From the NCBI GenBank assembly GCA_041651035.1, contig JBAZKC010000002.1, positions 30,884 through 94,883 of the forward strand: a stretch of DNA of 64,000 bases, given 5' to 3'. This document shows positions 12,489 to 51,067 of this stretch, piece after piece. The notes beneath the pieces were generated by a model. The model saw only the letters and a program-made list of their open reading frames with translations, ran no database searches and had not been told where the DNA came from. Origin of the DNA: Candidatus Omnitrophota bacterium (lineage in GTDB: Bacteria; Omnitrophota; Gorgyraeia; Gygaellales; Profunditerraquicolaceae). The stretch's first letter is position 1, and each line of letters opens with the position of its first letter. The position numbers and the translations under genes were made by a program.

Positions 12489-12698
12489 ATGATTACAGAG
12501 ATAGGGATAGTAGCCGGGGATATCTGGCACTTTTTAGACCAGCATGGAGAGGTTTCTTTGTCTGTCCTGGTAAAGAGCATAGATAAACCGCGCGATAACG
12601 TGCTTATGAGTTTAGGCTGGTTAGCCAGAGAAGGCCATGTGATTCTCCAGCAGGTGAATAACGGAGAATATAAAATAAACTTGAGGAAAGATGCCTAA
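12489..12698 (+). CDS. Hypothetical small protein (possible winged-helix fold)
   Basis: ATG at 12489 is preceded by a gggggaggg RBS; no family recognised with confidence. Confidence 0.4.
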   Translation: MITEIGIVAGDIWHFLDQHGEVSLSVLVKSIDKPRDNVLMSLGWLAREGHVILQQVNNGEYKINLRKDA

Positions 12699-13119
12699 GC
12701 CCGGGATCCAGGAGAAGGGGATTGTGCTGTTTATAGCTTTAGCGACAATTTTTATGGTTATTCTCCTGGCGAATATTGTGCTGAGTATTGTCTCCAGCCA
12801 GTCACGCCTGACACACCATAGGGTTAGCCGTATTCAGGCTTATTACGCGGCACTAGCAGGGGTAAATTTTAGCCTGGAACAGTTAAGGACCGGCGTTTGG
12901 GCTTTTACTCCTACTAATTCCTGCCCTGATCCAGGTGGCTGCTTACTTACTAATTTTGTCCAAGATTACGCAGGCACATTCCCCACGAGCGTAAGCGAGA
13001 TAAAGATCATTTTTTGTCCTTCAGGCAGCACTTGCACAGGAACATCCGATGCTTGCAGCCCTCCCACTGGCTATACTTTCTGTATAAATTCTACCGCAAC
13101 ATTCACCTACACACCGTAA
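12691..13119 (+). CDS. PilX-N-like minor pilin / pilus assembly protein
   Basis: N-terminal hydrophobic helix GIVLFIALATIFMVILLAN then ..SRIQAYYAALAGV resembling the PilX N-terminal domain; Cys-rich C-terminus. Confidence 0.5.
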   Translation: MPKPGIQEKGIVLFIALATIFMVILLANIVLSIVSSQSRLTHHRVSRIQAYYAALAGVNFSLEQLRTGVWAFTPTNSCPDPGGCLLTNFVQDYAGTFPTSVSEIKIIFCPSGSTCTGTSDACSPPTGYTFCINSTATFTYTP

Positions 13120-13250
13120 CGTAATACCCTATTTATAATCTATATATATCTAAGTAAGTTTATTATGAATTTATATGTTTTAATTTAGGGTCATTTTTAT
13201 AGTATTTTCTTCTAATAAGTAAATCTAAGTAAGAGTATATAAAAAAACAC

Positions 13251-20586: not shown

Positions 20587-20603
20587 CCGGATTATTTAAA
20601 TAT

Positions 20604-20632
20604 TTGACAAAATTGTTTTTAGATGATAAACT
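20604..20632 (+). promoter_or_regulatory. Candidate promoter TTGACA-17-(TGa)TAAACT upstream of the first pilin
   Basis: TTGACA at 20604-20609; extended -10-like TGATAAACT. Confidence 0.35.
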
Positions 20633-20663
20633 GTGTGGCATTAACAATAACAGGAGGTGTCAA

Positions 20664-21092
20664 ATGAGTAGGAAAGGTTTTACGTTGCTGGAGTTGATAG
20701 TAGTAATGGTTATTATCGGTGTACTGGCTACCTTAGGTTTTAATCAATACGGAAGGATGATAGAAAGGGCTCGCGGCGCTGAAGCCAGGTCAATTTTAGG
20801 GGATATCCGCAAGTACTCTGCCGCTTATTATCTGGAAAACGGCGCGGTTACAAATCTTACCGCGACCCTTGTTAATATCGGCACGGATAACGATCAAATC
20901 CCCAGCGCATGCGCTGACTCACATTATTTCAGTTACGCTCTGACTTCCCATGTAGATCCTACTATAGTAGCTACTGCTACGCGTTGCATAGCGGATGGAA
21001 AGACTCCTGATGCGGCTACAGCCTCAACGCTTATCCTTACTTCAAATATGTCTACAGGGGTAGATGCCTGGAGCGGGACTGGCGGTTATTAA
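20664..21092 (+). CDS. Type IV (major-type) pilin, prepilin N-terminal cleavage/methylation domain
   Basis: MSRKGFTLLELIVVMVIIGVLATL has the G|FTLLE class III signal. A caggaggtg RBS precedes it, and its C-terminal domain differs from the next three pilins. Confidence 0.85.
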   Translation: MSRKGFTLLELIVVMVIIGVLATLGFNQYGRMIERARGAEARSILGDIRKYSAAYYLENGAVTNLTATLVNIGTDNDQIPSACADSHYFSYALTSHVDPTIVATATRCIADGKTPDAATASTLILTSNMSTGVDAWSGTGGY

Positions 21093-21125
21093 TTTCTATA
21101 AAGACAAATAACCCGCTGGAGTACA

Positions 21126-21539
21126 ATGAAGGATAAGGGGTTTACTTTAATAGAGCTTATTGTTGTTATTATTGTCATCGGTGTTCTGGTGACTTTGACT
21201 TTTACCCATTATGGCTCATACACGGAACGCGCTTTAAATAAAGAGGCCCAGGCAAACCTAAGGTTGATCATAGCGGCAGAACGCAATACTAGAGTAGAAA
21301 CAGGCGATTACTATGCCAGCGATTCCACTCAACCTACGGCAATAAATAATATAAATACTAATCTAAGGCTATCCCTTTCAGCGGCAACTAACCGAAAGTG
21401 GGATTACGTCACTACGGTTGATAACGCGGCTGATCCTCCTACCTGTTGTGCTCAGGCAACGAGGAATGGCGATGATTCCAGGACTTATAGGATCCGTGAT
21501 ACCGAAGACAACCCGGTCGCAGACGGTACTTGTCCATAG
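21126..21539 (+). CDS. Type IV pilin paralog A
   Basis: MKDKGFTLIELIVV..; C-terminal CCAQATRNGDDSRTYRIRDTEDNPVADGTCP disulfide loop. Confidence 0.85.
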   Translation: MKDKGFTLIELIVVIIVIGVLVTLTFTHYGSYTERALNKEAQANLRLIIAAERNTRVETGDYYASDSTQPTAINNINTNLRLSLSAATNRKWDYVTTVDNAADPPTCCAQATRNGDDSRTYRIRDTEDNPVADGTCP

Positions 21540-21572
21540 ACAGCCGACCTTTCGTAAGGCGCCCAAAATAAA

Positions 21573-22049
21573 ATGCGTAAAAAAAGCCTTACCTTTGCTC
21601 CCATACCCGGAAAACAGAGAATAAATACGCCGGCAGCGCGCGGTTTTACTTTGATGGAGATCCTGGTGGTTATTATTATAGTAGCTATTCTGGCAACTTT
21701 GGCTATAAACCAATACCGTTCATATAAGGAACATGAACTGGATAAAGAGGCGCAGGCAACCCTAAGGTTGATTATGGGGGCAGAAAAGATCTACCGCATG
21801 GAGATAGGCGGTTACTATGCCAGTGGTCCCACTCAACCTACGGCAATAAGCAATATAAATACTAATTTAAGGTTATCTATTTCTACGGCAACTAACCGGA
21901 ACTGGGACTATATCACTACAGCCGATAACGCGTCTCCTATTCCTGTTAGCTGTACTCAGGCTACAAGGAATGAGGATGAAACTGACGCCAGGACTTATAG
22001 GATACGCAATACTGAAGATGATCCTGTCGCGAACAGTATTTGTCCATAA
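21573..22049 (+). CDS. Type IV pilin paralog B with a 19-aa insertion in the leader
   Basis: MRKKSLTFAPIPGKQRINTPAARGFTLMEILVV..; the C-terminal motif CTQATRNEDETDARTYRIRNTEDDPVANSICP is shared with paralogs A and C. Confidence 0.8.
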   Translation: MRKKSLTFAPIPGKQRINTPAARGFTLMEILVVIIIVAILATLAINQYRSYKEHELDKEAQATLRLIMGAEKIYRMEIGGYYASGPTQPTAISNINTNLRLSISTATNRNWDYITTADNASPIPVSCTQATRNEDETDARTYRIRNTEDDPVANSICP

Positions 22050-22063
22050 GGGATACCCACAAA

Positions 22064-22477
22064 ATGCGTAAAAAAGGCCTTACCTTGATGGAACTCCTGG
22101 CGGTTATTGTTATAGTCGGTGTTTTAGCAACTTTGGGTTTAGGCCAATACCGTTTATACAAGGAACGTGAATTAGATAAAGAGGCGCAGGCAAACTTAAG
22201 GTTGATTACGGGGGCAGAAAAGATCTACCGCATGGAGGCAGGCAGTTACTATCCTTATATTGGAGGCACTGTTGACAACATGGCCAGTATTAATACTGAC
22301 TTAGGTTTGCTTTTGCCTACAGGCTCCGGCCGCGCGTGGAATTATCTTACGATAGCTACTGTCAGCCCCGCTGCTTTCTGCGCTCAGGCCACAAGGAATG
22401 AGGATGAGGATGACGCCAGGACTCATAGAATACGCAATACCGAAGACGATCCGGTTGCGGACGCTATTTGTCCATAG
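22064..22477 (+). CDS. Type IV pilin paralog C
   Basis: MRKKGLTLMELLAV.. and the C-terminal CAQATRNEDEDDARTHRIRNTEDDPVADAICP. The junction sequence tgtccata-N-cacaaaatgcgtaaaaaagg is repeated before paralogs B and C. Confidence 0.85.
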   Translation: MRKKGLTLMELLAVIVIVGVLATLGLGQYRLYKERELDKEAQANLRLITGAEKIYRMEAGSYYPYIGGTVDNMASINTDLGLLLPTGSGRAWNYLTIATVSPAAFCAQATRNEDEDDARTHRIRNTEDDPVADAICP

Positions 22478-22491
22478 AGGATATTCACAAA

Positions 22492-22878
22492 ATGCGTAAA
22501 AAAGGCTTTACTTTGATCGAAGTAGTTGTTGCTATGATCATCATATTAATTACATTGACTGGCCTGATACATTTATTTGTCGCCGGGAAGAAATTGATTT
22601 TACATAGCCACGCCAGGATGACCGTAGGGGAGTTAGGAAAGGTTTTTATGGACCCCTTGCAGATGCAGGTGCGCCAGGATACCTGGGATGTGGCAGGCAA
22701 TTCGTTGTTGATTGTTACGGGCGCGGATAGCACAACCTGGACAGGGGCCGCGGAAGGCTTAAATGGGATTGATTTTACTCCTGATTATACTGTAGCCAGA
22801 GTTAAGGATGCCAGCAGTAATGATACGGGTTTGCGCCGCGTAACAGTAACTGTCCAATGGGAGGAACCTTCACCGTAA
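22492..22878 (+). CDS. Minor pilin (prepilin-type N-terminus)
   Basis: MRKKGFTLIEVVVAMIIIL.. class III signal; the C-terminus is unrelated to the major pilins. Confidence 0.75.
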   Translation: MRKKGFTLIEVVVAMIIILITLTGLIHLFVAGKKLILHSHARMTVGELGKVFMDPLQMQVRQDTWDVAGNSLLIVTGADSTTWTGAAEGLNGIDFTPDYTVARVKDASSNDTGLRRVTVTVQWEEPSP

Positions 22879-22886
22879 TTTAGCCT

Positions 22887-23561
22887 ATGAAGCGTATAAT
22901 TAAAGCGGTAACTCTTATGGAACTATTGATCGCCTTGGTTTTACTGGCGATCATTGTTTTAGGTATCGGCCAGATCGATATCTTTAGCAATCTCCATGTG
23001 TTAGGCACAGAGCGCCGGGCAAAGATAGATAACGAGATATCGCTGGCTTTAACCCATATGACTAAAGGTATTTCTAAGGCCATTGGTAATGAGGTATCCG
23101 GCGGAGCCAATTCAGTCGTAAATATCGCTAATGTTGGCGATTATACCGCGATAAGGGCTTATGTGGATACGGCTGACGATTATGTTTCAGCCGGAGACGG
23201 GCAAACAGGCACGCAAGGAGACCACTGGATCGCCTATGAATTTACAGGTACCGTTGCTTCTGATCCCGCTAACCGGTACCAGATCTGGTATTGCCCTCGG
23301 TGCACAGACAGCTCTTGCGTTACTTGCAATACCGCCTGGGGGACCGCAGGTAATACTATAGCCAGGAATATCAGCGCGGTTACTATTACTAAACCGGTGG
23401 ATAGCTCCAGCCAACTCAATAATAATTATGTAACGATAGAGATTACAGGCTGCTGGGATCCTGCAACTGTGGATGTAACGATTAATCATAACGGAACCAG
23501 GCTTAATCCTTGTGTCGATATGAATAGCCGCATTAATATGCCTTCCGTTTCTGTTAATTAA
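22887..23561 (+). CDS. Minor pilin-like protein (prepilin-like N-terminus, AVTLMELL)
   Basis: 224 aa with N-terminus KAVTLMELLIALVLLAIIVLGI (Glu at +5); the C-terminal domain is Cys-containing. Confidence 0.65.
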   Translation: MKRIIKAVTLMELLIALVLLAIIVLGIGQIDIFSNLHVLGTERRAKIDNEISLALTHMTKGISKAIGNEVSGGANSVVNIANVGDYTAIRAYVDTADDYVSAGDGQTGTQGDHWIAYEFTGTVASDPANRYQIWYCPRCTDSSCVTCNTAWGTAGNTIARNISAVTITKPVDSSSQLNNNYVTIEITGCWDPATVDVTINHNGTRLNPCVDMNSRINMPSVSVN

Positions 23562-26944: not shown

Positions 26945-27685
26945 ATGAACAGACTTTATTCTCCTTCTCAAAGTGTTTCCGGTGATACTATAACCTTTGA
27001 CAATAAAGAGCAGGTCCATCATGCCAGAAATGTTTTAAGGCTTAAAGTAAATGAGGAAGTTATAATATTTGACGATAAGGGCAATGAGTACTTCTGTGCT
27101 GTAGAGAAAATACTTCCGGAAAGTATTATTTTTAAGGTTAAAGAAAGAAAGGTTCCTATCAATACACTATCAAAGGTCAAGATCACAGTTGCCTGCGCTA
27201 TACCCAAAGCTTCTCATATGGATGACATTGTTGATAAGCTTACACAATTAGGGGTAGGCGCGATCATCCCTATGGAGACCGAGCGTGTGATCGTAAAGCT
27301 GGATAAGCGCAAGAAAATCTTACGCCAGGAGCGATGGGAGAAGATCATTCTAAACGCAAGCCAGCAAAGCCAGAGAAATACTTTAGCTGTATTAGAGCCG
27401 GTAAAGAAGATGGAGGGGGTGTTATCCGAATCAGCCGGTTACGATTTAAAACTGATACCCGCCTTGATAGGGGATAGGAAGCCGCTAAAAGAAGTCCTGG
27501 GTAAATATAAGCCAAAGAATATACTGGTATTAATAGGCCCCGAAGGTGATTTTACCGTCGAGGAAGTTGATTTAGCAATAAAATCCGGTTTTATACCGGT
27601 TACATTAGGGGATTCGGTCCTGCGCGTGGAAACCGCCGCTGTTAGTGTTGCGGCTTTTATCCGGCTATATTATGAAAACAGTTAA
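26945..27685 (+). CDS. rsmE: 16S rRNA (uracil1498-N3)-methyltransferase
   Basis: 246 aa, RsmE family layout (PUA-like N-domain, SPOUT C-domain ..LIGPEGDFT..). Confidence 0.8.
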   Translation: MNRLYSPSQSVSGDTITFDNKEQVHHARNVLRLKVNEEVIIFDDKGNEYFCAVEKILPESIIFKVKERKVPINTLSKVKITVACAIPKASHMDDIVDKLTQLGVGAIIPMETERVIVKLDKRKKILRQERWEKIILNASQQSQRNTLAVLEPVKKMEGVLSESAGYDLKLIPALIGDRKPLKEVLGKYKPKNILVLIGPEGDFTVEEVDLAIKSGFIPVTLGDSVLRVETAAVSVAAFIRLYYENS

Positions 27686-28967
27686 ATTCATTACTTTAGG
27701 CTGTAAGGTAAATCAATTTGATACCCAAAGTATAAGAGAGAGGTTCTTAGGGGCAGGGTACTCGGAAATAGATAACGGAAAACCCGCGGATATTTACCTG
27801 ATTAATACCTGCACAGTTACGCATAGGGCGGACTCTGATTCTCTTAATCTTATCCGCAAAGCAAAAAGAGAGAACTCCCGCGCCAAGATCATAGTTACCG
27901 GCTGCCTTACAGAACTTGATGAAGATTTAATAAGGCAGGCTGCAGCCAAGGTGATAATTGTAAAAAATAAGGATAAAGAAAAGCTGCCTTCACAGGGACT
28001 GACCCCGAAATATAACTCCCGAAGAGCTGTTCTTAGGGGTCTGTCCCTAAGAGCCAACAGCATTTCTTACTTCAAAGGCCACACCCGCGCATTCTTAAAA
28101 ATTCAGGACGGCTGCGATAATTTTTGTTCTTACTGCAAAGTCCCGTTAGTAAGAGGGAGATCGCGTAGCCGTGGCTTAGACAAGATTGTAAGCGACGCGC
28201 GGCAGCTGGTAAAAAACGGTTTTAAAGAGATAGTGCTATGTGGTATTTGCCTGGGTTCGTATGGTAAAGGCTTAAGCAGCGGCAAAAATCTTGTTGATGT
28301 GATTGAAGCGCTGGAAAAAATAGACGGGTTATTGCGCATCAGGTTGAGTTCTATAGAAGCAGGTGATGTTTCAGATAAATTGATTGCTAAGATGGCAGGC
28401 TCCGAGAAATTATGCCCGCATCTGCATATTCCTATCCAAAGCGGTGATGACGATATTTTAAAGAAAATGAACCGCCGCTATAGCCGTAAGGATTATCTGG
28501 CGCTTATCAAAAGAATAAAAAAGAATATTCCCGAAGTTGCCATTACTACGGATGTATTAGTAGGTTTTCCCGGAGAATCTGAATGCAACTTTCAAAATAC
28601 CCTGAAATTAATCAAGGAAATTCTGCCTTTAAAAGTGCATATTTTCCCTTATTCTCCGAGAAAAGGCACACTGGCTAGCGCAAAATTCAATCAAAGGATA
28701 GACCCTGGAATAATAAAAGAAAGGATTGCCCGGCTTAAGGACGTCGCCGGCAGTTGTTCGCTTGAATATAAAAAACAATTCTTGAATAGGAATATGCAGG
28801 TGCTTGTTGAAGGCCGTTCCAAAGAAAACCCCGCTTTCTGGCAGGGCCATACAGGAAATTTCCTAGAGGTTCTAATAAGGTTAGATCTTAATCTAAGCAA
28901 TAAAATCGTTACAACTAAATTAAGAAAACTAAAGGACGATTTTGTTTTAGCGGAGATTTTTCATTAG
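27675..28967 (+). CDS. mtaB: tRNA methylthiotransferase, MtaB/MiaB-like (MTTase N-domain, radical SAM, TRAM)
   Basis: MKTVKFITLGCKVNQFDTQ.., CDNFCSYCKVP radical SAM cluster. Carries a 61-bp in-frame palindromic element at 27993-28053 in the inter-domain linker. Confidence 0.85.
   Translation, partial: KTVKFITLGCKVNQFDTQSIRERFLGAGYSEIDNGKPADIYLINTCTVTHRADSDSLNLIRKAKRENSRAKIIVTGCLTELDEDLIRQAAAKVIIVKNKDKEKLPSQGLTPKYNSRRAVLRGLSLRANSISYFKGHTRAFLKIQDGCDNFCSYCKVPLVRGRSRSRGLDKIVSDARQLVKNGFKEIVLCGICLGSYGKGLSSGKNLVDVIEALEKIDGLLRIRLSSIEAGDVSDKLIAKMAGSEKLCPHLHIPIQSGDDDILKKMNRRYSRKDYLALIKRIKKNIPEVAITTDVLVGFPGESECNFQNTLKLIKEILPLKVHIFPYSPRKGTLASAKFNQRIDPGIIKERIARLKDVAGSCSLEYKKQFLNRNMQVLVEGRSKENPAFWQGHTGNFLEVLIRLDLNLSNKIVTTKLRKLKDDFVLAEIFH
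27993..28053. repeat. Type A GGGAC/GTCCC palindromic element, in-frame inside mtaB
   Basis: cagggactgaccccgaaatataactcccgaagagctgttcttaggggtctgtccctaagag; translated as QGLTPKYNSRRAVLRGLSLRA. Confidence 0.8.
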
Positions 28968-28968
28968 A

Positions 28969-29026
28969 CAGGGACTGGGTCCGAAATATAGCACCAGCAT
29001 GGTTGTTCTTAGGAGCCTGTCCCTAT
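28969..29026. repeat. Type A palindromic element, intergenic, directly after the mtaB stop
   Basis: cagggactgggtccgaaatatagcaccagcatggttgttcttaggagcctgtccctat. Confidence 0.8.
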
Positions 29027-29045
29027 TTATTTTAGCAGAATTATC

Positions 29046-29073
29046 TTGATTTTTAGCCTTTTAATTATATAAT
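29046..29073 (+). promoter_or_regulatory. Candidate promoter TTGATT-16-TATAAT upstream of the paralog array
   Basis: TTGATT at 29046-29051 and TATAAT at 29068-29073. Confidence 0.4.
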
Positions 29074-29104
29074 AAAATCAACCAAGCCCTTAGTAAAGGA
29101 ATAT

Positions 29105-29764
29105 ATGTCTAAATTACTTATTAAGATAGGGATCACCTCATTTTTCCTGCTCATCCTCTCCTCTTTTAGTTTTGCCGAAGAAACCCTTACCTTTACCACG
29201 TATTATCCGTCACCCTATGCCAGCTACAACGAGCTCCGCGCTAAGCGTATGGCTATTGGTGATAATTATATTGACAGCACTACTTATACCTGGGAGGTAA
29301 CCGACGGAGATGGAGGAGAGGTTGATTACTTAGCTGACCTGGTAGTTGAAGGCAGGGTAGGCATCGGCACAGTTATTCCTACTGTTCCTCTGCATGTCGC
29401 AGGCGCGGCAACCGGAGCTGTAAGGATAGTAGATGGCAACCAGGCTTTAGGTTATGTCCTGACTTCAGACGCAAACGGCGTAGGCAAATGGCAGGCAAGT
29501 TCAGGTGGTATAGTATATACATACTATTGTTATAACTCTCCCAGAGGCACTCCTGTGTGTACCGACTCCGGAGGCACTCAAGGTTATTGCCCCGCAGGAT
29601 ATACGCAGAAGCTTGCCCTTGGAGCGTGGGGTGTATGCTATTATACTGTAGCAGGCTGCTACGGTGATTCATACTATTATCATTTTCTTCCTCCGAATGG
29701 CAGTTGTGGTTCTACTTATCCCACTACGCAACTTTTTGGTTACGCTTATGTATGCTCTCAGTAA
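29105..29764 (+). CDS. Secreted Cys-rich protein, paralog 1 of a tandem triplet (unknown family)
   Basis: Signal peptide MSKLLIKIGITSFFLLILSSFSFA|EE. Conserved core YYPSPY.SYNELRAKR.AIGDNYI..TTYTWE.TDGDGGEVDYLADLVVEGRVGIGTV.PT.PLHV.G..TGAVRIVDGNQA.GYVLTSDANG.GKWQASSGG, then a variable Cys/Tyr-rich tail ending YVCSQ. Confidence 0.7.
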   Translation: MSKLLIKIGITSFFLLILSSFSFAEETLTFTTYYPSPYASYNELRAKRMAIGDNYIDSTTYTWEVTDGDGGEVDYLADLVVEGRVGIGTVIPTVPLHVAGAATGAVRIVDGNQALGYVLTSDANGVGKWQASSGGIVYTYYCYNSPRGTPVCTDSGGTQGYCPAGYTQKLALGAWGVCYYTVAGCYGDSYYYHFLPPNGSCGSTYPTTQLFGYAYVCSQ

Positions 29765-29772
29765 AGGAATAT

Positions 29773-30405
29773 ATGCCTAGATTATTTATTAAAATAGGGA
29801 TCACCTCATTTTTCCTGCTCATCCTATCCTCTTTTAGTTTTTCCGAAGAAACTCTTACTATCACCTCCTATTATCCTTCACCTTACGGCAGCTACAACGA
29901 GCTCCGCGCCAAGAGAGTGGCTATAGGAGACAACTACATCAACACCACTACCTATACCTGGGAGACAACCGATGGAGACGGAGGAGAGGTTGATTACTTA
30001 GCTGACCTGGTAGTTGAAGGCAGGGTAGGTATCGGTACCGTTACTCCAACTACTCCGTTGCATATCGTAGGCACAACTACTGGAGCTGTAAGGATAGTAG
30101 ATGGCAACCAGGCTTCAGGCTATGTCTTAACATCAGACGCAAATGGCCTAGGCAAATGGCAGGCAAGTTCAGGAGGTACAATGTACATGTATTATTGTTT
30201 TTCTAGCACTACCTATGGCACTCCTGTGTGTACCAACTCCGGAGGCACCCGGCTTTATTGCCCCGCAGGATATACACAAAAACTTGCGCTTGGCGCGTGG
30301 GGTACAAGCAACGGTCTCCAAGACCCGTATTATATTCCTCCGGGCGGCAGTTTCAGTGGTATTGCTGGATATGTTGGTTCAGCCTATGTATGCTCTCAGA
30401 ATTAA
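29773..30405 (+). CDS. Secreted Cys-rich protein, paralog 2
   Basis: The ATG at 29773 is preceded by the same agtaaaggaatat unit as paralog 1, with ~85-90% nt identity to paralog 1 in the first 430 nt. Confidence 0.7.
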   Translation: MPRLFIKIGITSFFLLILSSFSFSEETLTITSYYPSPYGSYNELRAKRVAIGDNYINTTTYTWETTDGDGGEVDYLADLVVEGRVGIGTVTPTTPLHIVGTTTGAVRIVDGNQASGYVLTSDANGLGKWQASSGGTMYMYYCFSSTTYGTPVCTNSGGTRLYCPAGYTQKLALGAWGTSNGLQDPYYIPPGGSFSGIAGYVGSAYVCSQN

Positions 30406-30418
30406 AAAGAGGTGTATA

Positions 30419-31123
30419 GTGTTTAAGAACAAGTTTTTATTCTTTCCGCCACTAATCTTTATTTTATTTCTTATTCCAAATTATTTCCTTTTTGCCGAAG
30501 AAACTCTCACTATCACCTCCTATTATCCGTCACCTTACGGCAGCTACAACGAGCTCCGCGCTAAGCGTATAGCCATAGGAGATAACTATATCAATACCAC
30601 TACCTATACCTGGGAGGCAACCGACGGAGATGGAGGAGAGGTTGATTACTTAGCTGATCTGATAGTTGAAGGCAGGGTAGGCATTGGCACGGTTACTCCT
30701 ACTGTCCCGCTGCATGTTACAGGTACATCAACCGGGGCTGTAAGGATAGTAGACGGCAACCAGGCTTCAGGCTATGTCCTGACTTCAGACGCAAACGGCG
30801 TAGGCAAATGGCAGGCAAGTTCAGGTGGTACAAGTTATACATACTATTGTTATAACTCTACATATACTAGTATGTTTGGAGTCGTGATGGCTTCTACTGG
30901 TACCCCCCAATGTACCGACTCCGGAGGCACTCGAGGTTATTGCCCCGCAGGATATACGCAGAAGCTCGCGCTTGGCTCATGGGGTATATGTGCGGCAGGC
31001 GTTCTTACCTACTATGGATATTTTCTTCCTCCGAGTGGCAGTTGTGGTACCGTGAACATATCAGGTACAGATTTTGCTGCGGCTGCTGTTGTTTACGGCA
31101 CAGCATACGTTTGTTCTCAGTAA
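30419..31123 (+). CDS. Secreted Cys-rich protein, paralog 3 (probable GTG start)
   Basis: The GTG at 30419 is preceded by an aaagagg RBS. Mosaic similarity to paralogs 1 and 2, with the longest C-terminal tail. Confidence 0.6.
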   Translation: MFKNKFLFFPPLIFILFLIPNYFLFAEETLTITSYYPSPYGSYNELRAKRIAIGDNYINTTTYTWEATDGDGGEVDYLADLIVEGRVGIGTVTPTVPLHVTGTSTGAVRIVDGNQASGYVLTSDANGVGKWQASSGGTSYTYYCYNSTYTSMFGVVMASTGTPQCTDSGGTRGYCPAGYTQKLALGSWGICAAGVLTYYGYFLPPSGSCGTVNISGTDFAAAAVVYGTAYVCSQ

Positions 31124-31303: not shown

Positions 31304-31405
31304 GACAGGGACAGCCCCCAATAGCGGCGGGACACTTTCCATTGAGTTACCTTGTTTTAGCTCTGATGGAAGGTGTCCCGTAACTGTTTTCGGGGACAGT
31401 CCCTT
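31304..31405. repeat. Composite nested palindromic element (gggacagcccc .. gggacactttcc .. ggaaggtgtccc .. ggggacagtccc) followed by a T6 tract
   Basis: Seen directly: outer gggacag arms and inner gggacac/gtgtccc arms. This may act as a terminator. Confidence 0.7.
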
Positions 31406-34155: not shown

Positions 34156-35142
34156 ATGTTTGTTGACAGCGTAAAAATATACGTCAGGGGAGGCAATGGC
34201 TCCAGAGGCTGCCAGAGCTTCTACCGTGATAAATATACGCGCCACCCGATACCTAACGGAGGAGACGGCGGCAAGGGTTCCGACATTATTATAAAAGCGG
34301 ATAGGAATTTATATACCCTTTTAGACTTTAAGTATAACAGTAATTTTCGCGGCCCAAACGGCGGCCGCGCTTCCAGCAATAAGAAAAAGGGCAAGGATGC
34401 CTCTAGTATTATTATCCCTGTCCCTATAGGCACGACCATTAAGGATATAAAAACAAATTGCGTGCTTCGCGATCTGGATAAAGACCAGCAGGAAGTTATA
34501 GTAGCTTATGGCGGTAAAGGCGGCCTGGGTAACCAGCATCATAAAGAAGCTTCTGATGGGGAGCCCGGAGAGGAAAAAGAGCTGCTGCTTGATTTAAAAG
34601 TAATCGCGGATGTGGGCATCGTAGGTTTTCCTAACGCGGGAAAATCCACGTTGATCTCCAGTATCTCTAATGCCCATCCGAAAGTAGCCTCCTATCCTTT
34701 TACTACCAAATCCCCTATTTTAGGCGTGGTTAATTATTCCCGCAAGCCGTTTACAGTAGCTGATATTCCCGGGCTTATCAAAGGTTCATCAGAAGGCCGC
34801 GGCCTGGGGGATAGGTTTTTAAGGCACATCGAACGGACGAGAATTATTATCCATATTGTGGATATCTCGAGCTCTGAAGGCAGGGACCCGGTAGAGGATT
34901 ATAAGACCATAAATGAAGAGTTAAAGAATTATAGCGAGGAAGTTAGCTCCGATGTTAAATATTTTGGCGCCAGGGTTAATAAAAAGCCGCAGATCATCGT
35001 TGCCAATAAAATGGATATAACAGGCGCTGATTCTAATCTCAAGATATTTAAGAAGGCGGTAAAGAAAAAGGTTTATCCGATATCCGCGCTGAAAAAAGAA
35101 GGGCTGGAGGAGTTAATTGAAGCAATCGTCGAAAAACTTTAA
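34156..35142 (+). CDS. obg: GTPase Obg
   Basis: MFVD..KIYVRGGNGSRGC, glycine-rich Obg fold, G1 GFPNAGKST, G3 DIPG. Confidence 0.92.
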   Translation: MFVDSVKIYVRGGNGSRGCQSFYRDKYTRHPIPNGGDGGKGSDIIIKADRNLYTLLDFKYNSNFRGPNGGRASSNKKKGKDASSIIIPVPIGTTIKDIKTNCVLRDLDKDQQEVIVAYGGKGGLGNQHHKEASDGEPGEEKELLLDLKVIADVGIVGFPNAGKSTLISSISNAHPKVASYPFTTKSPILGVVNYSRKPFTVADIPGLIKGSSEGRGLGDRFLRHIERTRIIIHIVDISSSEGRDPVEDYKTINEELKNYSEEVSSDVKYFGARVNKKPQIIVANKMDITGADSNLKIFKKAVKKKVYPISALKKEGLEELIEAIVEKL

Positions 35143-36187
35143 GAGGATCGTTGTAAAAATAGGCTCAAGCCTTCTGTGCCCTGATAAGGGGAAGCTTGAG
35201 CGCGGGCTGCTTAATGAGATCACCGGCCAGATCCAGGATCTGGTTAAAGACGGCAAAGAGATAGTCGTGGTCTCTTCGGGCGCGATCGCCCTGGGGATGG
35301 CTATATTGAAACTGGAATCACGCCCGAAAGAACTGGCGTATCTGCAGGCAGCCGCGGCTATAGGCCAACCAGAGCTGATGGATATCTATAGGGAATCTTT
35401 TAAGCAAAGGCAGTTAAATTGCCCGCAGCTGCTTTTAACCTGGGAAGATTTTAATGACCGCTCGCGTTATCTAAACGCCAAGAATACATTGTTAGCGCTT
35501 TTAAAATTAAACAGCGTGCCGATAATAAATGAAAACGACACAGTCTCCACTGATGAGATAAAATTCGGAGATAATGACCGGCTTTCAGCGCTGGTATCCA
35601 TACTTATCGGCGCGGACCTTTTGGTCATACTCTCTGATGTTGACGGCCTTCTGGAAAAAGATAAAAAGACCCTGGTAAGGTTAGTAGATAAAATTACGCC
35701 CCAGATACATGGCCTGGCTTGCCCTACGGATAAAAAAACCTGCGTGGGCGGGATGGTGACCAAGATAGAAGCAGCCAGGATTGTCGTAGACTCCGGTATT
35801 CCCTGCGTGATCGCCAATGGCAGGCGTAAAGGTATTATTAAATCCTGCGTAGACAATTCTAGTGAGAGCGGCACTTTGTTTTTGCCTAAGAAAGATCATC
35901 TTGCCGCGAAGAAGCGCTGGATCGCTTTTAGCGCCAAGCCAAAAGGAAAAATTATCGTTGATGATGGGGCCCGCCTTGCGCTCCTGAATAAGAAGAGCCT
36001 GCTTTCAGTAGGGATCGTTGGTTGTGAAGGCAGTTTTAATAAAGGGGACATTGTCAGCTTAAGAGATAAGCAAAACCGCGAATTCGCCAGGGGCAAAGCG
36101 GCGCTTTCCAGCGGAGAATTAGACAAAATTAAAGGCAGGCGCTGCGAGAAAGAAGCGGCCCATTGCGATAATATAGTCATATTGTAG
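35117..36187 (+). CDS. proB: Glutamate 5-kinase with C-terminal PUA domain
   Basis: KRIVVKIGSSLL.., amino-acid kinase fold, PUA C-terminus. Confidence 0.9.
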   Translation: MKQSSKNFKRIVVKIGSSLLCPDKGKLERGLLNEITGQIQDLVKDGKEIVVVSSGAIALGMAILKLESRPKELAYLQAAAAIGQPELMDIYRESFKQRQLNCPQLLLTWEDFNDRSRYLNAKNTLLALLKLNSVPIINENDTVSTDEIKFGDNDRLSALVSILIGADLLVILSDVDGLLEKDKKTLVRLVDKITPQIHGLACPTDKKTCVGGMVTKIEAARIVVDSGIPCVIANGRRKGIIKSCVDNSSESGTLFLPKKDHLAAKKRWIAFSAKPKGKIIVDDGARLALLNKKSLLSVGIVGCEGSFNKGDIVSLRDKQNREFARGKAALSSGELDKIKGRRCEKEAAHCDNIVIL

Positions 36188-36192
36188 TTACA

Positions 36193-36254
36193 CAGGGACT
36201 GTCCCCGAAATGTAGCTCCTGATGGGCTGTTCTTAGGGGACTGCCCCTAGAGAG
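36193..36254. repeat. Type A palindromic element between proB and proA
   Basis: cagggactgtccccgaaatgtagctcctgatgggctgttcttaggggactgcccctagagag. Confidence 0.8.
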
Positions 36255-40121: not shown

Positions 40122-40745
40122 ATGGTTTATTCTATATCGCGGTTTTTAAGTTTATTGATATTTAAGATCGTGTTTCGGCTGGAGGTACACGGCCAAAAAA
40201 ATATACCTGAAAAAGGAGGTTTTATTTTAGCCGGCAACCATGTCAGTTACTTAGACCCGGTTGCCGTAGGGGTAGCCTGTCCGCGTGAAACTGATTTTAT
40301 GGCGCGGCACGATTTATTCTCGAAGCGTTTTCTCTCCTGGTGGCTGCCCAGAGTGAGGGCTTTTCCGGTAAAAAGGGATTCTCCGGACGCGTCAGCTTTA
40401 AAAGAAGCTATACGGCGCCTAAGGCGCGGCAGGGGGTTGGTTATGTTTCCTGAAGGCAGCCGCCGCGACGGGCCAGACGGCACTTCAGCTGGACCGCAGC
40501 CGGGTATCGGATTTATAGCGGTAAAAGCTGATGTGCCTGTGATACCGGCTTTTGTAAAAGGGACGGAAAGAGCGCTTCCCAGAGGCGCTAAATTCATATT
40601 TCCCGCTAAGGTTTCCGTGTATTTCGGGAAACAAATTCATATAGAAAAGGGGGTATCTTATCAAAGCGTCGCTAAAATAGTAATGGACAATATTAAAATT
40701 ATTGATACGAAGGGAGAAATAAAAAATGACAGAAACAAGATCTGA
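40122..40745 (+). CDS. plsC: 1-acyl-sn-glycerol-3-phosphate acyltransferase
   Basis: AGNHVSYLDP (HX4D) and MFPEGSRR acyltransferase motifs. Confidence 0.85.
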   Translation: MVYSISRFLSLLIFKIVFRLEVHGQKNIPEKGGFILAGNHVSYLDPVAVGVACPRETDFMARHDLFSKRFLSWWLPRVRAFPVKRDSPDASALKEAIRRLRRGRGLVMFPEGSRRDGPDGTSAGPQPGIGFIAVKADVPVIPAFVKGTERALPRGAKFIFPAKVSVYFGKQIHIEKGVSYQSVAKIVMDNIKIIDTKGEIKNDRNKI

Positions 40746-42264
40746 GATGGAGCAGTTTTATAATCAAAGTATAAAGATAATCCGCGAGGGCCAGGTAGTT
40801 ACCGGAAAGATCATTTCCGTGAGGGCTAAAGAGGTACTGGTGGATGTGGGGTTTAAATCCGAAGGCCTTGTCCCGATCATCGAGTTTAGCAAGGATGACC
40901 TAGAACCCGGAAAAGAATTAGAGTTCTACGTCGAATCAATAGAGAACGACGCGGGCAATATTGAGCTGTCCAGGGAAAAGGCAATGCGCATACAGGGGTG
41001 GGACAAGATCGTTAAATTTTCCCAGGATGGAGAGTTTGTCGACGGCAGGCCTGTTAAGAAAGTAAAAGGCGGGTTTCTCGTTGATGTTATGGGTATTGAA
41101 GGGTTCCTGCCTTCGTCTCTTTCCGCTTTTAAGGGTATCATGGAAAGGGATATTATGTATAAGCCTTATAAGTTCAAGATCGTCAAAGTTAATAACCTAA
41201 GGCGGAGCATTATCGTCAGCCGGCGTGAAGCTGTGCAGAAAGACAAGGAAGTAAACAAAACTAAAGTATGGCAGGGATTAAAGATCGGCGATATACATTC
41301 CGGCATGGTCAAGGCCATAACCGATTTCGGCGCCTTTATTGACTTAGGCGGAGTAGACGGGCTCCTGCATATTACGGATATGTCCTGGTCAAAGATCAGC
41401 CATCCTTCAGAAATAGTGGCTTTGGGGGATAAGATCGAAGTAACGATCTTGAATTTGGATAAAGATTCGGGAAAGATCTCTCTGGGATTAAAGCAAAGGC
41501 TGCCGGATCCCTGGCAGGATGTTGAGACAAAATTCAGCGTCGGCTCTAAAGTTAAGGGGAAGGTTGTAAATATTCTTCCATACGGGGTGTTCGCTGAATT
41601 GGATAAAGGGATAGAGGGATTGATCCATATATCAGAGATCTCCTGGATAAAGAGGATCAATAACCCGAGCGAGATGTTCGCTATCGGGGATATGGTAGAG
41701 ACTCAAGTGATAAGTGTGGATAAAGAGTCCCGCAGGATATCCTTAAGCATTAAACAACTGGAGCAGAATCCCTGGTTAGAGGCTGAATCCAAGTATCCTG
41801 TAGGCGCGAAAATCTCAGGTAAAGTAAGGGGATTTACGGAATACGGCGCCTTTGTGGAATTAGACAGCAGCTTGGAAGGAATGATCCATGTTTCTGATAT
41901 CTCTTGGACTAAAAGGATCGCGCATCCTCAGGATGTGTTGAAAAAGGGCCAGAAGGTGGATGTATCTGTTCTTTCCGTGGACAGCCAGAACCGGCGCATT
42001 TCTTTAGGCTTAAAACAATTACAGCCTAATCCTTGGACGGAGATCGCCGCCAAGTATCCCCTGGATACTATTTTAGAAGCAGAAGTAGCCAGCATCACTG
42101 ATTTTGGTGTCTTTGTGAAAATAGAAGAGGATCTGGAGGGTTTGATTTACGCCAGTGAAATAGATAAGGACACGGTTTCTAAATTGAAACCGGGAGATAA
42201 AATACAGAGCAAGGTTATTAAGGTTGATGTTGAGCAGGCCAAGATCGGCCTCGCCCCCGTTTAA
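40726..42264 (+). CDS. rpsA: 30S ribosomal protein S1
   Basis: 512 aa, six S1 (OB-fold) repeats. Confidence 0.92.
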   Translation: MTETRSEMEQFYNQSIKIIREGQVVTGKIISVRAKEVLVDVGFKSEGLVPIIEFSKDDLEPGKELEFYVESIENDAGNIELSREKAMRIQGWDKIVKFSQDGEFVDGRPVKKVKGGFLVDVMGIEGFLPSSLSAFKGIMERDIMYKPYKFKIVKVNNLRRSIIVSRREAVQKDKEVNKTKVWQGLKIGDIHSGMVKAITDFGAFIDLGGVDGLLHITDMSWSKISHPSEIVALGDKIEVTILNLDKDSGKISLGLKQRLPDPWQDVETKFSVGSKVKGKVVNILPYGVFAELDKGIEGLIHISEISWIKRINNPSEMFAIGDMVETQVISVDKESRRISLSIKQLEQNPWLEAESKYPVGAKISGKVRGFTEYGAFVELDSSLEGMIHVSDISWTKRIAHPQDVLKKGQKVDVSVLSVDSQNRRISLGLKQLQPNPWTEIAAKYPLDTILEAEVASITDFGVFVKIEEDLEGLIYASEIDKDTVSKLKPGDKIQSKVIKVDVEQAKIGLAPV

Positions 42265-42271
42265 ACGCTTA

Positions 42272-42339
42272 GGGACACCCTTTTTGCCAATCGAGGGACA
42301 CCCTTTCAGCTAATCGGGAGGGTGTCCCTTCAAGGGACA
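42272..42339. repeat. gggacaccc-type palindromic element (two direct gggacaccctttt copies plus inverted agggtgtccc) between rpsA and tyrS
   Basis: gggacaccctttttgccaatcgagggacaccctttcagctaatcgggagggtgtcccttcaagggacat; can form a 9-10 bp hairpin. Confidence 0.7.
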
Positions 42340-42343
42340 TAAA

Positions 42344-43528
42344 ATGCAAAAACCGGATATAAAAAAACAACTGGAGATAATAAAACGCGGCGCGGTGGAT
42401 ATTATCTCTGAGGATGAGCTTAAGCAGAAATTGGAAGCGAGTATTAAATCCGGCAAACCGCTTAAGATTAAAGCCGGTTTTGATCCTACAGCTCCTGATA
42501 TCCATCTGGGGCATATAGTGCTTTTGCGCAAGCTGCGCCAGTTCCAGGAGCTTGGGCATGAAGTCATCTTTTTGATCGGTGATTTCACCGGTCGTATCGG
42601 AGACCCCAGCGGCCGTTCCGAGATCCGCAAGCAGCTTACTGCCGAAGAAGTGGCTAAGAATGCCGAAACATACCGCAGGCAGATTTCAAAAGTCCTCGAC
42701 ATTAAGAAGATCAAGATCGTTTTTAACAGCTCCTGGTTCGAGAAGCTATCTTTAACCAGTATGCTCCATCTTGCCATGTGCTCTTCAGTCGGCCAGATGC
42801 TTGCCCGCGATGATTTTAAGAAGCGTTATACCAAAGGCGAAAACATCTCCATACTTGAATTTATCTATCCGCTCCTTCAGGGATATGATTCGATTAAGCT
42901 TGAGGCTGATGTTGAGCTCGGCGGGACAGACCAGGTTTTTAATCTTTTGATGGGCAGGGAGCTCCAGAAAGATTTTAACCAGCCTCAACAGGTAGTCATT
43001 ACTATGCCGCTTCTGGAAGGCACTGATGGGGTTAACAAGATGAGTAAGTCTTCGGGTAATTATATCGGCATTAACGAAAGCCCTTCTGAAATGTTCGGAA
43101 AGATCATGTCCATATCCGACGCGTTAATGGTCAAGTATTACGAATTGTTGACGGATGAAGACCTGGCTGCGGTAAAGAGTATGCACCCTAAGGAAGCAAA
43201 GATAAAATTAGCCCGGGAGATCGTCGCGCAGTACCATTCCCCGGAAGACGCAAAGCGGGCCCAGGCGGAATTTGACCGCGTATTCAGCCAGAAAGAATTG
43301 CCGGATGATATTCTAGAATATAAAACAAACGGGACAGAGACGATCCTGGCCATATTATTAAATACCGGATTGGTAAAAAGTGGCAATGAGGCACGCAGGC
43401 TCCTAAAGCAGGGGGCGGTTATCTTCTGTGACGCTAGAATAGAAAAGGATAGTTTTATCCCCCAAGAAAGCGGCATCTTGAAAGTCGGCGCGCGCAGGTT
43501 CTTGAAAATTACATGCCCAATAAAATAG
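42344..43528 (+). CDS. tyrS: Tyrosine--tRNA ligase
   Basis: HLGH (HIGH-class) and KMSKS motifs, C-terminal S4-like domain. Confidence 0.92.
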
Positions 43529-44802: not shown

Positions 44803-45600
44803 ATGCGCGACATAAAAGGAAAGGTTTCCATAATCATGCCTGCTTATAATGAAGCAGGCCGCATCGCCGCCAGCATAGAAGAAACAGCCAAAACTTTTAA
44901 CGAGTTTGGGTGCTCTTGGGAGCTCATCGTGATGGATGACGGCTCAAGCGACGATACGTATGAGTTTACCAGAGAAATTTCCAAAAAATACCCCGCCGGC
45001 CGGATTATTATCAAAAAGAACCCTTTTAACATGGGTAAAGGCAGGGCGCTTAAAAAGGCATTACGTTACATAAGCGGGGATTACGCGGTGTTCTTAGACG
45101 CGGATATGGATTTGCACCCCATACAGGTTCAAACGCTTTTTGACATCATGCGCCTGGATAACGCTGATATAGTCATAGGCTCTAAATTGCACCCTAATTC
45201 AATAGTGGATTATTCTTTCCAGCGCAGGCTTTATAGCTGGGTTTATTATTTGTTGGTAAAGATGCTTTTTGGCCTGCCTTGTCATGATACTCAAACCGGC
45301 CTTAAGTTATTTAAGACCGAGGTCTTGCGAAAGGTTTTCCCCCGGATACTGGTAAAGAAATTTGCCTTTGACCTGGAGGTTTTGGTAAACGCGCACCACT
45401 TAGGATATAAAATGGCGGAAGCCCCGATAGTGCTTAGTCCCCAAAGGCGTTATGGCCGTATTGGGCTCAATGCCGTCTTTGTTACTTTATGGGATACCCT
45501 GGCAATATTCTATCGGATGCATATTTTAAAATATTATGACCGTATCCATTATTATCGTCGTAAAAACCTGGCAAAAGAATTTAGAAGAATGCGTAGGTAA
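44803..45600 (+). CDS. Glycosyltransferase family 2 (DPM/undecaprenyl-phosphate sugar transferase-like)
   Basis: VSIIMPAYNE..DDGSSDDT..FLDADMD motifs. Confidence 0.85.
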   Translation: MRDIKGKVSIIMPAYNEAGRIAASIEETAKTFNEFGCSWELIVMDDGSSDDTYEFTREISKKYPAGRIIIKKNPFNMGKGRALKKALRYISGDYAVFLDADMDLHPIQVQTLFDIMRLDNADIVIGSKLHPNSIVDYSFQRRLYSWVYYLLVKMLFGLPCHDTQTGLKLFKTEVLRKVFPRILVKKFAFDLEVLVNAHHLGYKMAEAPIVLSPQRRYGRIGLNAVFVTLWDTLAIFYRMHILKYYDRIHYYRRKNLAKEFRRMRR

Positions 45601-46507
45601 GTGCCTCAAACTCGACTCTGCTGAGTTTGAGATCTTGATCTTGCCTGACGAACCTATTGCCCAAAGGGACAGTCTCTGTTCGGGGACAGTCCCTATTAGA
45701 GTTATTCCCACGGGCCCTGTGTCTCCGGCTGATAAGCGGGACATAGCCATAAAATACGCGAAAGGAGACATCGTTGCTTTTATCGATGACGATGCCTATC
45801 CGGTAAAAGATTGGCTTAAAAACGCGTTAGAGAATTTTAAAGATGAAGAGGTGGCCGCGGTAGGGGGGCCGGCAATAACCAGCCCTCTGGACAGCTTAAG
45901 ACAAAAAGCAAGCGGCGCGATATATTCGTCGTTTTTAGTAAGCGGGGGATTTGTCTATCGTTATCTGCCTAAGGAAAAAAGAGAGATAGATGATTATCCG
46001 AGTTGTAATCTTCTGGTCCGTAAATCCATAATGCGGGAGTTAGGCGGTTTTAATACCAAGTTCTGGCCGGGAGAAGATACTAAGCTTTGCCTGGATATAA
46101 CTGTCAGGCTCGGTAAAAAGATAATTTATGACCCCGGTGTCCTGGTTTATCATCACCGCCGGCCGGTCTTTGTCCCCCATCTTAAGCAGATAGCTAATTA
46201 TGCCCTTCATCGCGGTTATTTCGTAAAGAAATACCCCGAAACCTCTTTAAAGTTGCCTTATTTTATTCCCACGCTATTTCTATTCGCGCTGACAATAGGC
46301 GCTATCTTGTCTATGGTTTCAGCTCCCATTAGAATAATTTATTCTTTAGGGTTGTCGTTATATTTAATTTCAGTTTTTATTTCTAGTATTCGTAATGGCG
46401 CGCGTTTGGCACCTTTTGTATTTTTCGGCATAATATTTACTCATTGCACCTATGGTTTTTATTTCCTGAAAGGCCTTTTTTACCAGAAGCTTTCCGAAGA
46501 AAAATAA
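45536..46507 (+). CDS. Glycosyltransferase family 2 with C-terminal membrane helices
   Basis: VSIIIVVK..IDDDAYP; contains a 28-bp in-frame GGGAC element at 45666-45693 (SLCSGTVP). The start overlaps the upstream GT2 by 65 nt. Confidence 0.75.
   Translation: MTVSIIIVVKTWQKNLEECVGKCLKLDSAEFEILILPDEPIAQRDSLCSGTVPIRVIPTGPVSPADKRDIAIKYAKGDIVAFIDDDAYPVKDWLKNALENFKDEEVAAVGGPAITSPLDSLRQKASGAIYSSFLVSGGFVYRYLPKEKREIDDYPSCNLLVRKSIMRELGGFNTKFWPGEDTKLCLDITVRLGKKIIYDPGVLVYHHRRPVFVPHLKQIANYALHRGYFVKKYPETSLKLPYFIPTLFLFALTIGAILSMVSAPIRIIYSLGLSLYLISVFISSIRNGARLAPFVFFGIIFTHCTYGFYFLKGLFYQKLSEEK
45666..45693. repeat. Short gggacagtc / ggggacagtccc element inside the GT2 CDS
   Basis: gggacagtctctgttcggggacagtccc. 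Confidence 0.6.
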
Positions 46508-46508
46508 T

Positions 46509-46744: not shown

Positions 46745-46754
46745 AAAAATAAAT

Positions 46755-49952: not shown

Positions 49953-49981
49953 CCATAACCAAGGGGACTGTCCCTAAAGAG
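49921..49981. repeat. Type A-variant palindromic element spanning the rfbD-like 3' end
   Basis: cagggactgtccccaccaaagctattagttagccataaccaaggggactgtccctaaagag. Confidence 0.75.
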
Positions 49982-51028: not shown

Positions 51029-51067
51029 CTTAAGATGAACTGTTCTTAGGGACCTGTCCCTAAAGAG
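51006..51067. repeat. Type A palindromic element overlapping the rfbB stop
   Basis: cagggactggtcccgaaaagtagcttaagatgaactgttcttagggacctgtccctaaagag; the rfbB TAG is the aaaagTAG inside the element. Confidence 0.8.

Follow-up and report, generated by a model that had tools for sequence, protein, structure and literature searches.

A dispersed hairpin family with a copy in frame in the inter-domain linker of MtaB in an Omnitrophota genome

In a 64,000-nt stretch of the genome of a Candidatus Omnitrophota bacterium (assembly GCA_041651035.1, contig JBAZKC010000002.1; the whole stretch is called the window below), the gene mtaB, for a tRNA-modifying enzyme (t6A37 methylthiotransferase), contains a palindromic segment that lies in frame between two domains of the encoded enzyme and recurs elsewhere in the same window. 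The question raised by this locus is what the segment is, how it could have come to lie within a conserved gene, and what it adds to the protein. With a probability of roughly 0.7, we consider it a copy of a non-autonomous mobile hairpin resembling repetitive extragenic palindromic (REP) sequences, tolerated and translated in a permissive linker. The host gene and the copy within it are:

27672 to 28967, + strand: mtaB, 431 aa, with UPF0004, radical SAM and C-terminal beta-barrel domains; intact, with a TAG stop at 28965-28967.
27994 to 28048, + strand: c1, core of the hairpin in mtaB (repeat unit 27993-28051), in frame; covariance-model score 81 bits.

As a preliminary description of this DNA had stated, the element is read without a stop inside the 431-aa open reading frame (ORF), with 27993-28055 translating to QGLTPKYNSRRAVLRGLSLRA; c1 together with its flanks encodes residues 108-127 (QGLTPKYNSRRAVLRGLSLR). 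The location given there, between the N-terminal domain and the radical SAM core, was confirmed by Pfam, which placed UPF0004 at residues 4-94 and Radical_SAM at residues 143-314, hence the insert falls within the linker between them. The element had also been set down as a 61-bp palindrome at 27993-28053. An imperfect palindrome it is, but the size does not hold, since the paired core is 55 nt and 61 is not a multiple of three; the inserted-looking part of that span is 60 nt (20 codons).

The segment belongs to a repeat family, here called family A. Two half-patterns of the element matched the window four and five times, compared to 0.00 and 0.02 matches expected from shuffles, and a repeat search recovered a five-copy, 59-nt family starting at 27993, 28969, 36193, 46690 and 51006, all on the + strand. 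Besides c1, the cores are:

28970 to 29024, + strand: c2, 2-3 nt past the mtaB stop, followed by a U-rich tract (UAUUUAUUUU) and a promoter-like site at 29046-29073.
36194 to 36248, + strand: c3, at 6 nt from the stop of ORF 35117-36187 on its 5' side and 12 nt from the next ATG (36261) on its 3' side; the copy closest to c1.
46691 to 46745, + strand: c4, 9 nt before the ATG at 46755.
51007 to 51061, + strand: c5, overlapping the final 22 nt of the rfbB-like ORF 49991-51028; the next ATG is at 51079.

Pairwise identity among these copies is 74-92%. The copy after mtaB (28969-29027) had been called near-identical to the one within the gene, a claim that we correct: the two are only 79% identical, and the closest sibling of c1 is the copy at 36193-36251 (86%). 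At the end of the rfbB-like ORF, c5 supplies the C-terminal residues AGTGPEK and the TAG stop.

A strict pattern scan of metagenomes, which did not recover the source contig, found family-A copies on three unrelated contigs. Below, L numbers denote fetched metagenome contigs and P numbers MtaB orthologue proteins. These three copies, all co-oriented with the flanking genes, are:

L001: at an ORF end.
L002: directly after argG.
L003: in the spacer between rtcB and serS.

The 55-nt core has the form AGGGAC-T-(6 bp)-GAAAnnT-(5-bp inner hairpin)-GTTCTTA-(6 bp)-T-GTCCCT, and every family-A copy folds alike (-22.6 to -27.5 kcal/mol, z = -2.1 to -4.2). In c1, a stem of 6 bp, a T·T mismatch and a further 6 bp encloses the inner hairpin (-27.5 kcal/mol, z = -4.1); this stem is flawless and includes a private compensatory pair, GACCCC/GGGGTC. 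Constraint was analysed in an alignment of eight copies, the five of the window and the three from metagenome contigs. The 12-bp outer stem was 96.9% paired, compared to 31-57% in slid controls, and three positions had changed on both sides (UA/GC/AU, CG/UA and CG/UA); its covariation score of 0.225 (0.131 shuffled) was reached by 0 of 500 shuffles. The stem foot AGGGAC/GTCCCT and the mid-stem T·T mismatch were constant in every copy, and so were CCGAAA..TA and TGTTCTTAGG, two blocks that are unpaired. Pairing is weak in the inner helix (82%), where seven cells are G·U on the + strand, and the interior varies: the frame used in mtaB has stop codons in five of the seven other family-A copies.

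The element matched no catalogued RNA. Rfam 15 run over the whole window at the gathering score returned one tRNA only and no match to the element, and at E<=10 the mtaB region gave only chance matches to microRNA hairpins. Neither hammerhead, twister, pistol, k-turn nor GAAA-receptor fits, in a comparison made by eye with their consensus motifs. Among the family-A copies of the window a terminator-like T-run occurs at c2 only, and with a U-rich tail at this copy alone a terminator reading is ruled out for the family as a whole. Two pattern scans of 185,579 GTDB species genomes and one scan of viral contigs for the arms gave zero matches, and a covariance model of the eight copies found no further members in 191 kb. 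With no GTDB or viral matches and copies on three metagenome contigs, family A is rare and confined to a narrow lineage.

On two of these contigs a shared module of about 45 nt, ACCAAGCGAGATAAGG..GATTGG.AGATAAGCCAAAAG, follows the hairpins (L002 1844-1890, L003 3610-3650). It also stands behind a different hairpin, AGGGACTCATCCCC..., at L002 505-552, and beside no window copy that was read; it may represent a composite element of greater length or a leader.

The host protein looks intact. MtaB had thousands of database matches, the named ones being MtaB, mostly from Omnitrophota metagenome-assembled genomes; an identical protein named MtaB, from a 385,813-bp contig, is on record at NCBI (MFA5144994.1), and the top PDB matches are MiaB (7MJV) and RimO. 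In an alignment of 32 orthologues the six cluster cysteines, C11, C47 and C78 of the N-terminal domain together with C148, C152 and C155 (CxxxCxxC), are invariant. An AlphaFold2 model made from a 32-sequence alignment is confident (mean predicted local distance difference test score, pLDDT, 86.4; predicted template modelling score 0.84) and contains the C-terminal, TRAM-like beta-barrel. Its pLDDT falls below 50 only at residues 111-132, corresponding to the insert region, which lacks secondary structure and is the sole disordered stretch of the protein. The insert is thus predicted to form a disordered loop between two well-folded domains, in agreement with the surface loop for which a structural model had been proposed as a check.

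Is the segment then an insertion? The preliminary description had held it to be one that orthologues lack, and it is present in none of the 120 listed MtaB orthologues (Omnitrophota). No sequence resembling QGLTPK...RGLSLR was found in the alignment of 32 orthologues or in the linkers read in 106 of the 122 retrieved proteins, and the flanks KNKDKEKLPS and NSISYFKGH both align to the orthologue consensus. What did not stand is the notion of a clean insertion into a linker of fixed length, as most orthologues hold other, unrelated inserts: 10-25 variable residues, differing from those of the window protein. Measured from the TGC motif to FLKIQDGC, the region is 38-75 residues long (median 59.5; 65 in the window protein), and P0027 has essentially no linker (VIVKKKINGISYF). 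The linker DNA of nine orthologue loci reads as follows:

L004 (P0030): 53-nt hairpin with the same arms, AGGGACTGTCCCC...GGGGACTGTCCCT, and another interior; a second copy lies in the rsmE-mtaB spacer.
L011 (P0042): hairpin with the same arms.
L012 (P0060), 8934-8962: 29-nt version, AGGGACTGTCCCCGAAGGGGACTGTCCCT.
L012 (P0060), 9181-9216: a further in-frame hairpin, GGGGACGGTTCTATTTTCTAAAATAGAACCGTCCCC, within a loop of the radical SAM domain.
L005 (P0066): unrelated perfect palindrome, CCCCGTTAGAGAC-27 nt-GTCTCTAACGGGG.
L010 (P0007): CCTGCCTGCCGGCAGGCAGG hairpin.
L008 (P0008): 51-nt insert encoding WFDKLTIPRTIPSEVEG.
L009 (about 10380-10410): tandem heptamer ACGCAAT, encoding NTQYAVRNT.
L006 (about 4170-4215): tandem duplication of 16-21 nt, encoding NELNGHNELNG.
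L007 (P0027): empty.

Three sibling pairs differ cleanly at this site. P0030 and P0027 are 69% identical and separated by a clean 17-aa gap that matches the same-arm 53-nt hairpin; P0074 and P0067 are 82% identical, with gaps of 13 aa in the linker and 9 aa in a second loop; P0008 and P0034 differ by a 17-aa gap. These pairs show clean presence and absence of the inserts, a turnover at the same site in relatives. Hairpins with the same arms occupy at least three linker positions (after IVKK, after ERIVxLL and after KEKLPS), and these different positions imply independent insertion events. Across Omnitrophota, the MtaB linker has been struck independently by at least five different repeat types.

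In some orthologues in-frame palindromes mark a second permissive site, the loop after GICLGSYGK, and a third after LVKNG; examples are KGTVLFSKIEPSP in P0060, VTVTFGDCH in P0074 and GFTPLETKGKQEKDKMSLT in P0002.

The default explanation for such repeated hits is that the site is permissive. That the linker is a true hotspot or a selected site, and not merely a permissive one, strikes us as quite unlikely. In the former version, the A-rich lysine-codon tract GTAAAAAATAAGGATAAAGAAAAG would mimic the integration target of hairpin elements. In the latter, a stable mRNA hairpin where the two domains meet would be an advantage, for instance by pausing the ribosome so that the N-terminal Fe-S domain folds before the radical SAM core emerges. 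Either would explain why at least seven Omnitrophota lineages have five or more unrelated, perfectly paired palindromes there, as well as the repeated hits on the second loop and the preservation of the c1 stem by private compensation.

The mtaB copy is also one of several in-frame hairpins within the same 64 kb. Arm and inverted-repeat searches of the window found a superfamily with the foot GGGAC...GTCCC, bringing the window total to 12 hairpins, namely the five family-A copies and at least seven related ones. Eight of the 12 occupy spacers between co-directional genes or the edges of such spacers, and four lie in frame inside genes (mtaB and genes of rfbB-like, GT2-like and radical-SAM-like type). 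All family-A and family-B copies share the T·T mismatch that separates the two 6-bp halves of the stem, while interiors differ among subfamilies. The related hairpins are:

31307 to 31404, - strand: long (98 nt) same-foot relative between genes; its mismatch reads A·A on the + strand.
42271 to 42329, + strand: same-foot hairpin of the AGGGACACCC type (AGGGAC...GTCCCT), between ORFs 40726-42264 and 42344-43528.
45665 to 45694, - strand: short same-arm hairpin of 30 nt, antisense, in frame in the GT2-like ORF 45536-46507.
46509 to 46537, + strand: second-family hairpin, intergenic, 2 nt past the stop of ORF 45536-46507.
47204 to 47232, + strand: second-family hairpin, GGGGACGGTTCTCAAAGAGAACCGTCCCC, in frame in the radical-SAM-like ORF 46755-48248.
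49922 to 49975, + strand: family-B hairpin with the same arms, AGGGACTGTCCCC/GGGGACTGTCCCT, and a different 28-nt interior.
50066 to 50125, + strand: second-family hairpin, GGGGACGGTTCT...AGAACCGTCCCC with a GTTTCAC..AACAGGxACTG tail, in frame in rfbB.

The second family follows the pattern GGGGACGGTTCTC-NNN-GAGAACCGTCCCC at 46509, 47204 and 50066. In rfbB, which encodes a dTDP-glucose 4,6-dehydratase-like protein, its hairpin falls directly after the GGAGFIGS helix, and the protein reads FVRLLN[QGDGSAFGRTVPEFHRTGTVP]KIIVVD, with 15-16 residues beyond solved RfbB structures; the composite repeat of this hairpin recurs intergenically at 46508-46560. Among the in-frame hairpins other than that of mtaB, rfbB is the one that was compared with homologues, in the form of these PDB structures. 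The 45665-45694 hairpin encodes RDSLCSGTVP between ILILPDEPIAQ and IRVIPTGP in an ORF that is apparently a GT2-like glycosyltransferase, judged from its translation, and the 47204-47232 hairpin encodes QGTVLKENRPH in an ORF that apparently belongs to the radical SAM proteins, given its motif CTFCSWG. The peptide GTVLKENRP is also the MtaB linker of orthologue P0098, and we therefore regard the recurring protein motif as an artefact of the DNA repeat. The family-B hairpin overlaps the end of ORF 49104-49952, 15 nt 5' of the rfbB ATG; like c5, it provides the last residues and stop codon of the ORF that it overlaps, so that the C-termini predicted for this genome are in part repeat-encoded. A tblastn search of the fetched loci gave no orthologue of the remaining hairpin-bearing genes of the window, and a protein-database search with a 58-aa chimera of element peptides, a query too short for significance, gave no match at E<=10.

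Just 5' of c4, 46592-46689 holds a further inverted repeat, TCTTTTAGTCATTCTGAG ... CTCAGAATGACGACAAGA, whose interior is GCGAAGCGAAGAATC/GATTCTTCGG; palindromic repeats of at least three different kinds are thus piled up in the spacer 46508-46754.

How would such a family spread and persist? The 55-nt core is part of a wider superfamily defined by the foot AGGGAC...GTCCCT, whose members would normally persist in short spacers between co-directional genes. The copy c1 would have persisted in mtaB because it landed in a dispensable, disordered linker and adds about 20 stop-free codons in frame; the mRNA would be read through it, and the enzyme would gain a floppy surface loop that is probably neutral. 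The family may spread in the form of folded single-stranded DNA that is processed in trans, by cutting and joining, by an HUH/Y1 transposase (RAYT, the REP-associated tyrosine transposase, or an IS200-like enzyme), which would recognise the constant foot and the mid-stem T·T mismatch, the latter marking the strand. That the mobiliser is specifically RAYT-like is a tentative proposal, to which we give somewhat less than even odds.

Several observations bear on this mechanism. First, the mismatch makes the top strand (T·T) distinguishable from the bottom strand (A·A), and in 12 of the 14 superfamily copies with clear gene context the T·T strand is the sense, G-rich strand, a bias that fits strand-specific recognition of single-stranded DNA; all long ORFs of the window lie on the + strand, which is also the G-rich one (GC skew +0.07 to +0.15). 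Second, no target-sequence duplication was seen in the flanks of 13 copies, and between orthologue proteins with and without an insert the difference is exactly 17 residues (51 nt), with no duplicated flank in the adjoining DNA; the missing duplication fits Y1-type elements and not MITEs (miniature transposable elements with inverted repeats) of the DDE type. Third, L004, a relative with same-arm hairpins, carries a Y1_Tnp gene of 228 aa (12551-13237) two genes 3' of mtaB, and its best match is the model for REP-associated tyrosine transposases, at 59 bits compared to 18 bits for the IS200 model.

Against this reading stand a number of points. The L004 gene falls below the curated cutoff of 80 bits and its flanks are without these hairpins, and tblastn with the L004 Y1 protein found no transposase homologue in the 64-kb window. 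The window copies lack the GTAG tag and have ACAG or GCAG ahead of GGAC; GTAG-GGAC is found only in L002 and L003, and the relatives on L004, L011 and L012 read AAAG or GAAG. The element measures 55 nt, more than the 20-40 bp of a classical REP. The nearest orthologue is about 65% identical and no empty site of this lineage is on hand; with no closer orthologue, the c1 boundaries and the insertion event are deduced from protein alignments. Lastly, a role at the RNA level could account just as well for the unpaired blocks that never vary, CCGAAA..TA and TGTTCTTAGG, and for the G·U pairs of the sense strand.

The element is best filed as a REP-like hairpin family, or superfamily, that is new in Omnitrophota and of an already known kind. 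Like REPs and REPINs, which are mobilised by RAYT/TnpAREP, the hairpins are short, GC-rich stem-loops in many dispersed copies, mainly between co-directional genes just 3' of ORFs, where they sometimes give the stop codon. They form subfamilies with compensatory stem changes and G·T pairs, have a strand-marking irregularity in mid-stem, occur now and then in frame in flexible loops inside genes, and leave no target duplication. This agrees with published work on hairpins that Y1 transposases recognise as folded single-stranded DNA. The TnpAREP of E. coli needs a conserved mismatch in the middle of the REP stem for its activity and takes a single strand as its substrate (PMC8266576). Di Nocera et al. 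(2013) described REPs inside genes, among others in Opitutus terrae, a PVC bacterium, stop codons supplied by REP ends, and G·T pairing, and argued that intragenic copies are neutral since they are located in flexible linkers (PMC3733652). The differences lie in the family-A core, at 55 nt with a 29-nt structured interior compared to the 20-40 bp of a REP, a size found here only among the short same-arm relatives of 29-30 nt (L012 8934-8962; window 45665-45694), in the GTAG/CGTC tag, which is not conserved in the Omnitrophota hairpins, and in a repeat-flanked cognate RAYT, which was found neither in the 64-kb window nor on L004; the phylum and the sequence family are also new.

A parallel had been drawn with the Rickettsia palindromic elements (RPEs), which occur between genes and in frame in conserved housekeeping genes, including tRNA-modification enzymes, and add a peptide segment without destroying the host protein in several genes per genome (PMC10969869, PMC3733652). 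This parallel survives as a functional analogy, in that the insertion lies in frame in a conserved gene and leaves the host ORF intact, in mtaB and also in rfbB. It does not extend to membership of the RPE families: classic RPE-1-type elements are about 100-150 bp and have their own conserved peptide, whereas family A is REP-like, 55 nt long and variable in its interior, and the lineages are unrelated; the two are set apart here by size and description, not by sequence comparison. Bacterial MITEs also produce hairpin transcripts, sit in operon spacers and occasionally form in-frame fusions (PMC10969869). DDE-type MITEs such as Correia, ERIC, Chunjie and Nezha resemble family A as small non-autonomous inverted-repeat elements. 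Family A differs from them in being much shorter and in having inverted arms but no target-site duplication; no parent insertion sequence with matching terminal repeats was seen, and the strand bias and mismatch point to single-stranded-DNA (Y1) chemistry. A literature search found no paper on palindromic repeats in Omnitrophota.

An alternative that we think unlikely is that the element is a functional RNA: as an intercistronic stem-loop it would stabilise the upstream mRNA, mark where the transcript is processed or adjust how the next gene is translated, and its copy in mtaB would either be there by accident or serve to slow ribosomes between the two domains. The sense orientation of 12 of 14 copies suits such a role, as do the positions of most copies, 2-6 nt past a stop and/or 8-18 nt before a start, with a GAGG-like Shine-Dalgarno sequence in the 3' flank. 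The seven sense-strand G·U cells of the inner helix correspond to A·C mismatches on the opposite strand, the unpaired blocks are constant while the stem varies, c2 is followed by a U-rich tract at the operon end, and Di Nocera et al. argue likewise that many REPs act as RNA (PMC3733652). Yet Rfam gave no match at the gathering score and none meaningful at E<=10, most copies lack the T-run of a terminator, and positions are not conserved between relatives that share the gene order, with a copy after mtaB only in the window and one before mtaB only in L004. Moreover, interiors are swapped between subfamilies with the arms unchanged, two copies are antisense, and in-frame copies lie either way round inside unrelated genes. 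The RNA alternative and a mobile REP-like hairpin do not exclude each other, since a selfish element can be transcribed too.

Very improbable, in our judgement, is a role of each arm as a double-stranded DNA operator (near-palindrome GGGAC-T-GTCCC) for a dimeric protein, the element being a pair of sites four helical turns apart that serves nucleoid organisation or regulation. The 13-nt arms are each nearly palindromic, forming direct repeats of GGGACTGTCCC with their centres 42 bp apart, and this would explain the T·T "mismatch" without any hairpin. However, the changes in c1 (GACCCC/GGGGTC) and in c2, c4 and c5 (GGTCCC/GGGACC) break or shift the symmetry within arms and keep the pairing between them, the 3-4-nt inter-arm loop of the short relatives is too small for two separate sites, and some copies lie inside coding regions.

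Finally, a native MtaB linker, an assembly artefact or intron- or intein-like removal that adds nothing to the mature enzyme can be considered effectively refuted: MiaB, the nearest solved relative, has a linker of similar length and most orthologues have 10-25 variable residues here, but the peptide is common to no orthologue and its 55-nt sequence recurs in four window spacers and on unrelated contigs, the JGI, NCBI and ENA versions of the contig all give this protein sequence, and 20 residues or 55 nt, with no ribozyme family match, are far too small for an intein or self-splicing intron.

Read as a REP-like mobile hairpin, the mtaB copy extends the phenomenon of RPEs and intragenic REPs to Omnitrophota, a largely uncultured phylum, and helps to define a new hairpin superfamily with an AGGGAC/GTCCCT foot, a T·T mismatch and interchangeable interiors. 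The independent insertions provide a natural map of the permissive sites of MtaB, the linker and the loop after the GICLGSYGK strand, and the pairs with and without an insert could serve for dating and following the movement of repeats in metagenomes. For annotation, such repeats inflate or distort the protein predictions of metagenome-assembled genomes by adding peptides, changing C-termini and supplying stop codons, and recurring "motifs" such as GLSP...GTVP or GTVLKENRP are artefacts of DNA repeats and not protein signatures.

Three features of the surrounding genes were observed in addition. First, three tandem paralogues of about 220-300 aa (29086-31123; 73-86% DNA identity) lie directly 3' of mtaB and c2, with a signal-peptide-like N-terminus and a conserved C-terminus, ...AYVCSQ. 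Second, 20600-22900 contains four to five tandem prepilin-type (N_methyl) genes, 3' of genes resembling E and F of the type II secretion system. Third, the gene order pilins, radical SAM, Memo/AMMECR1, DsbD, rsmE, mtaB is kept across the Omnitrophota contigs examined, including L004, L005 and L012.

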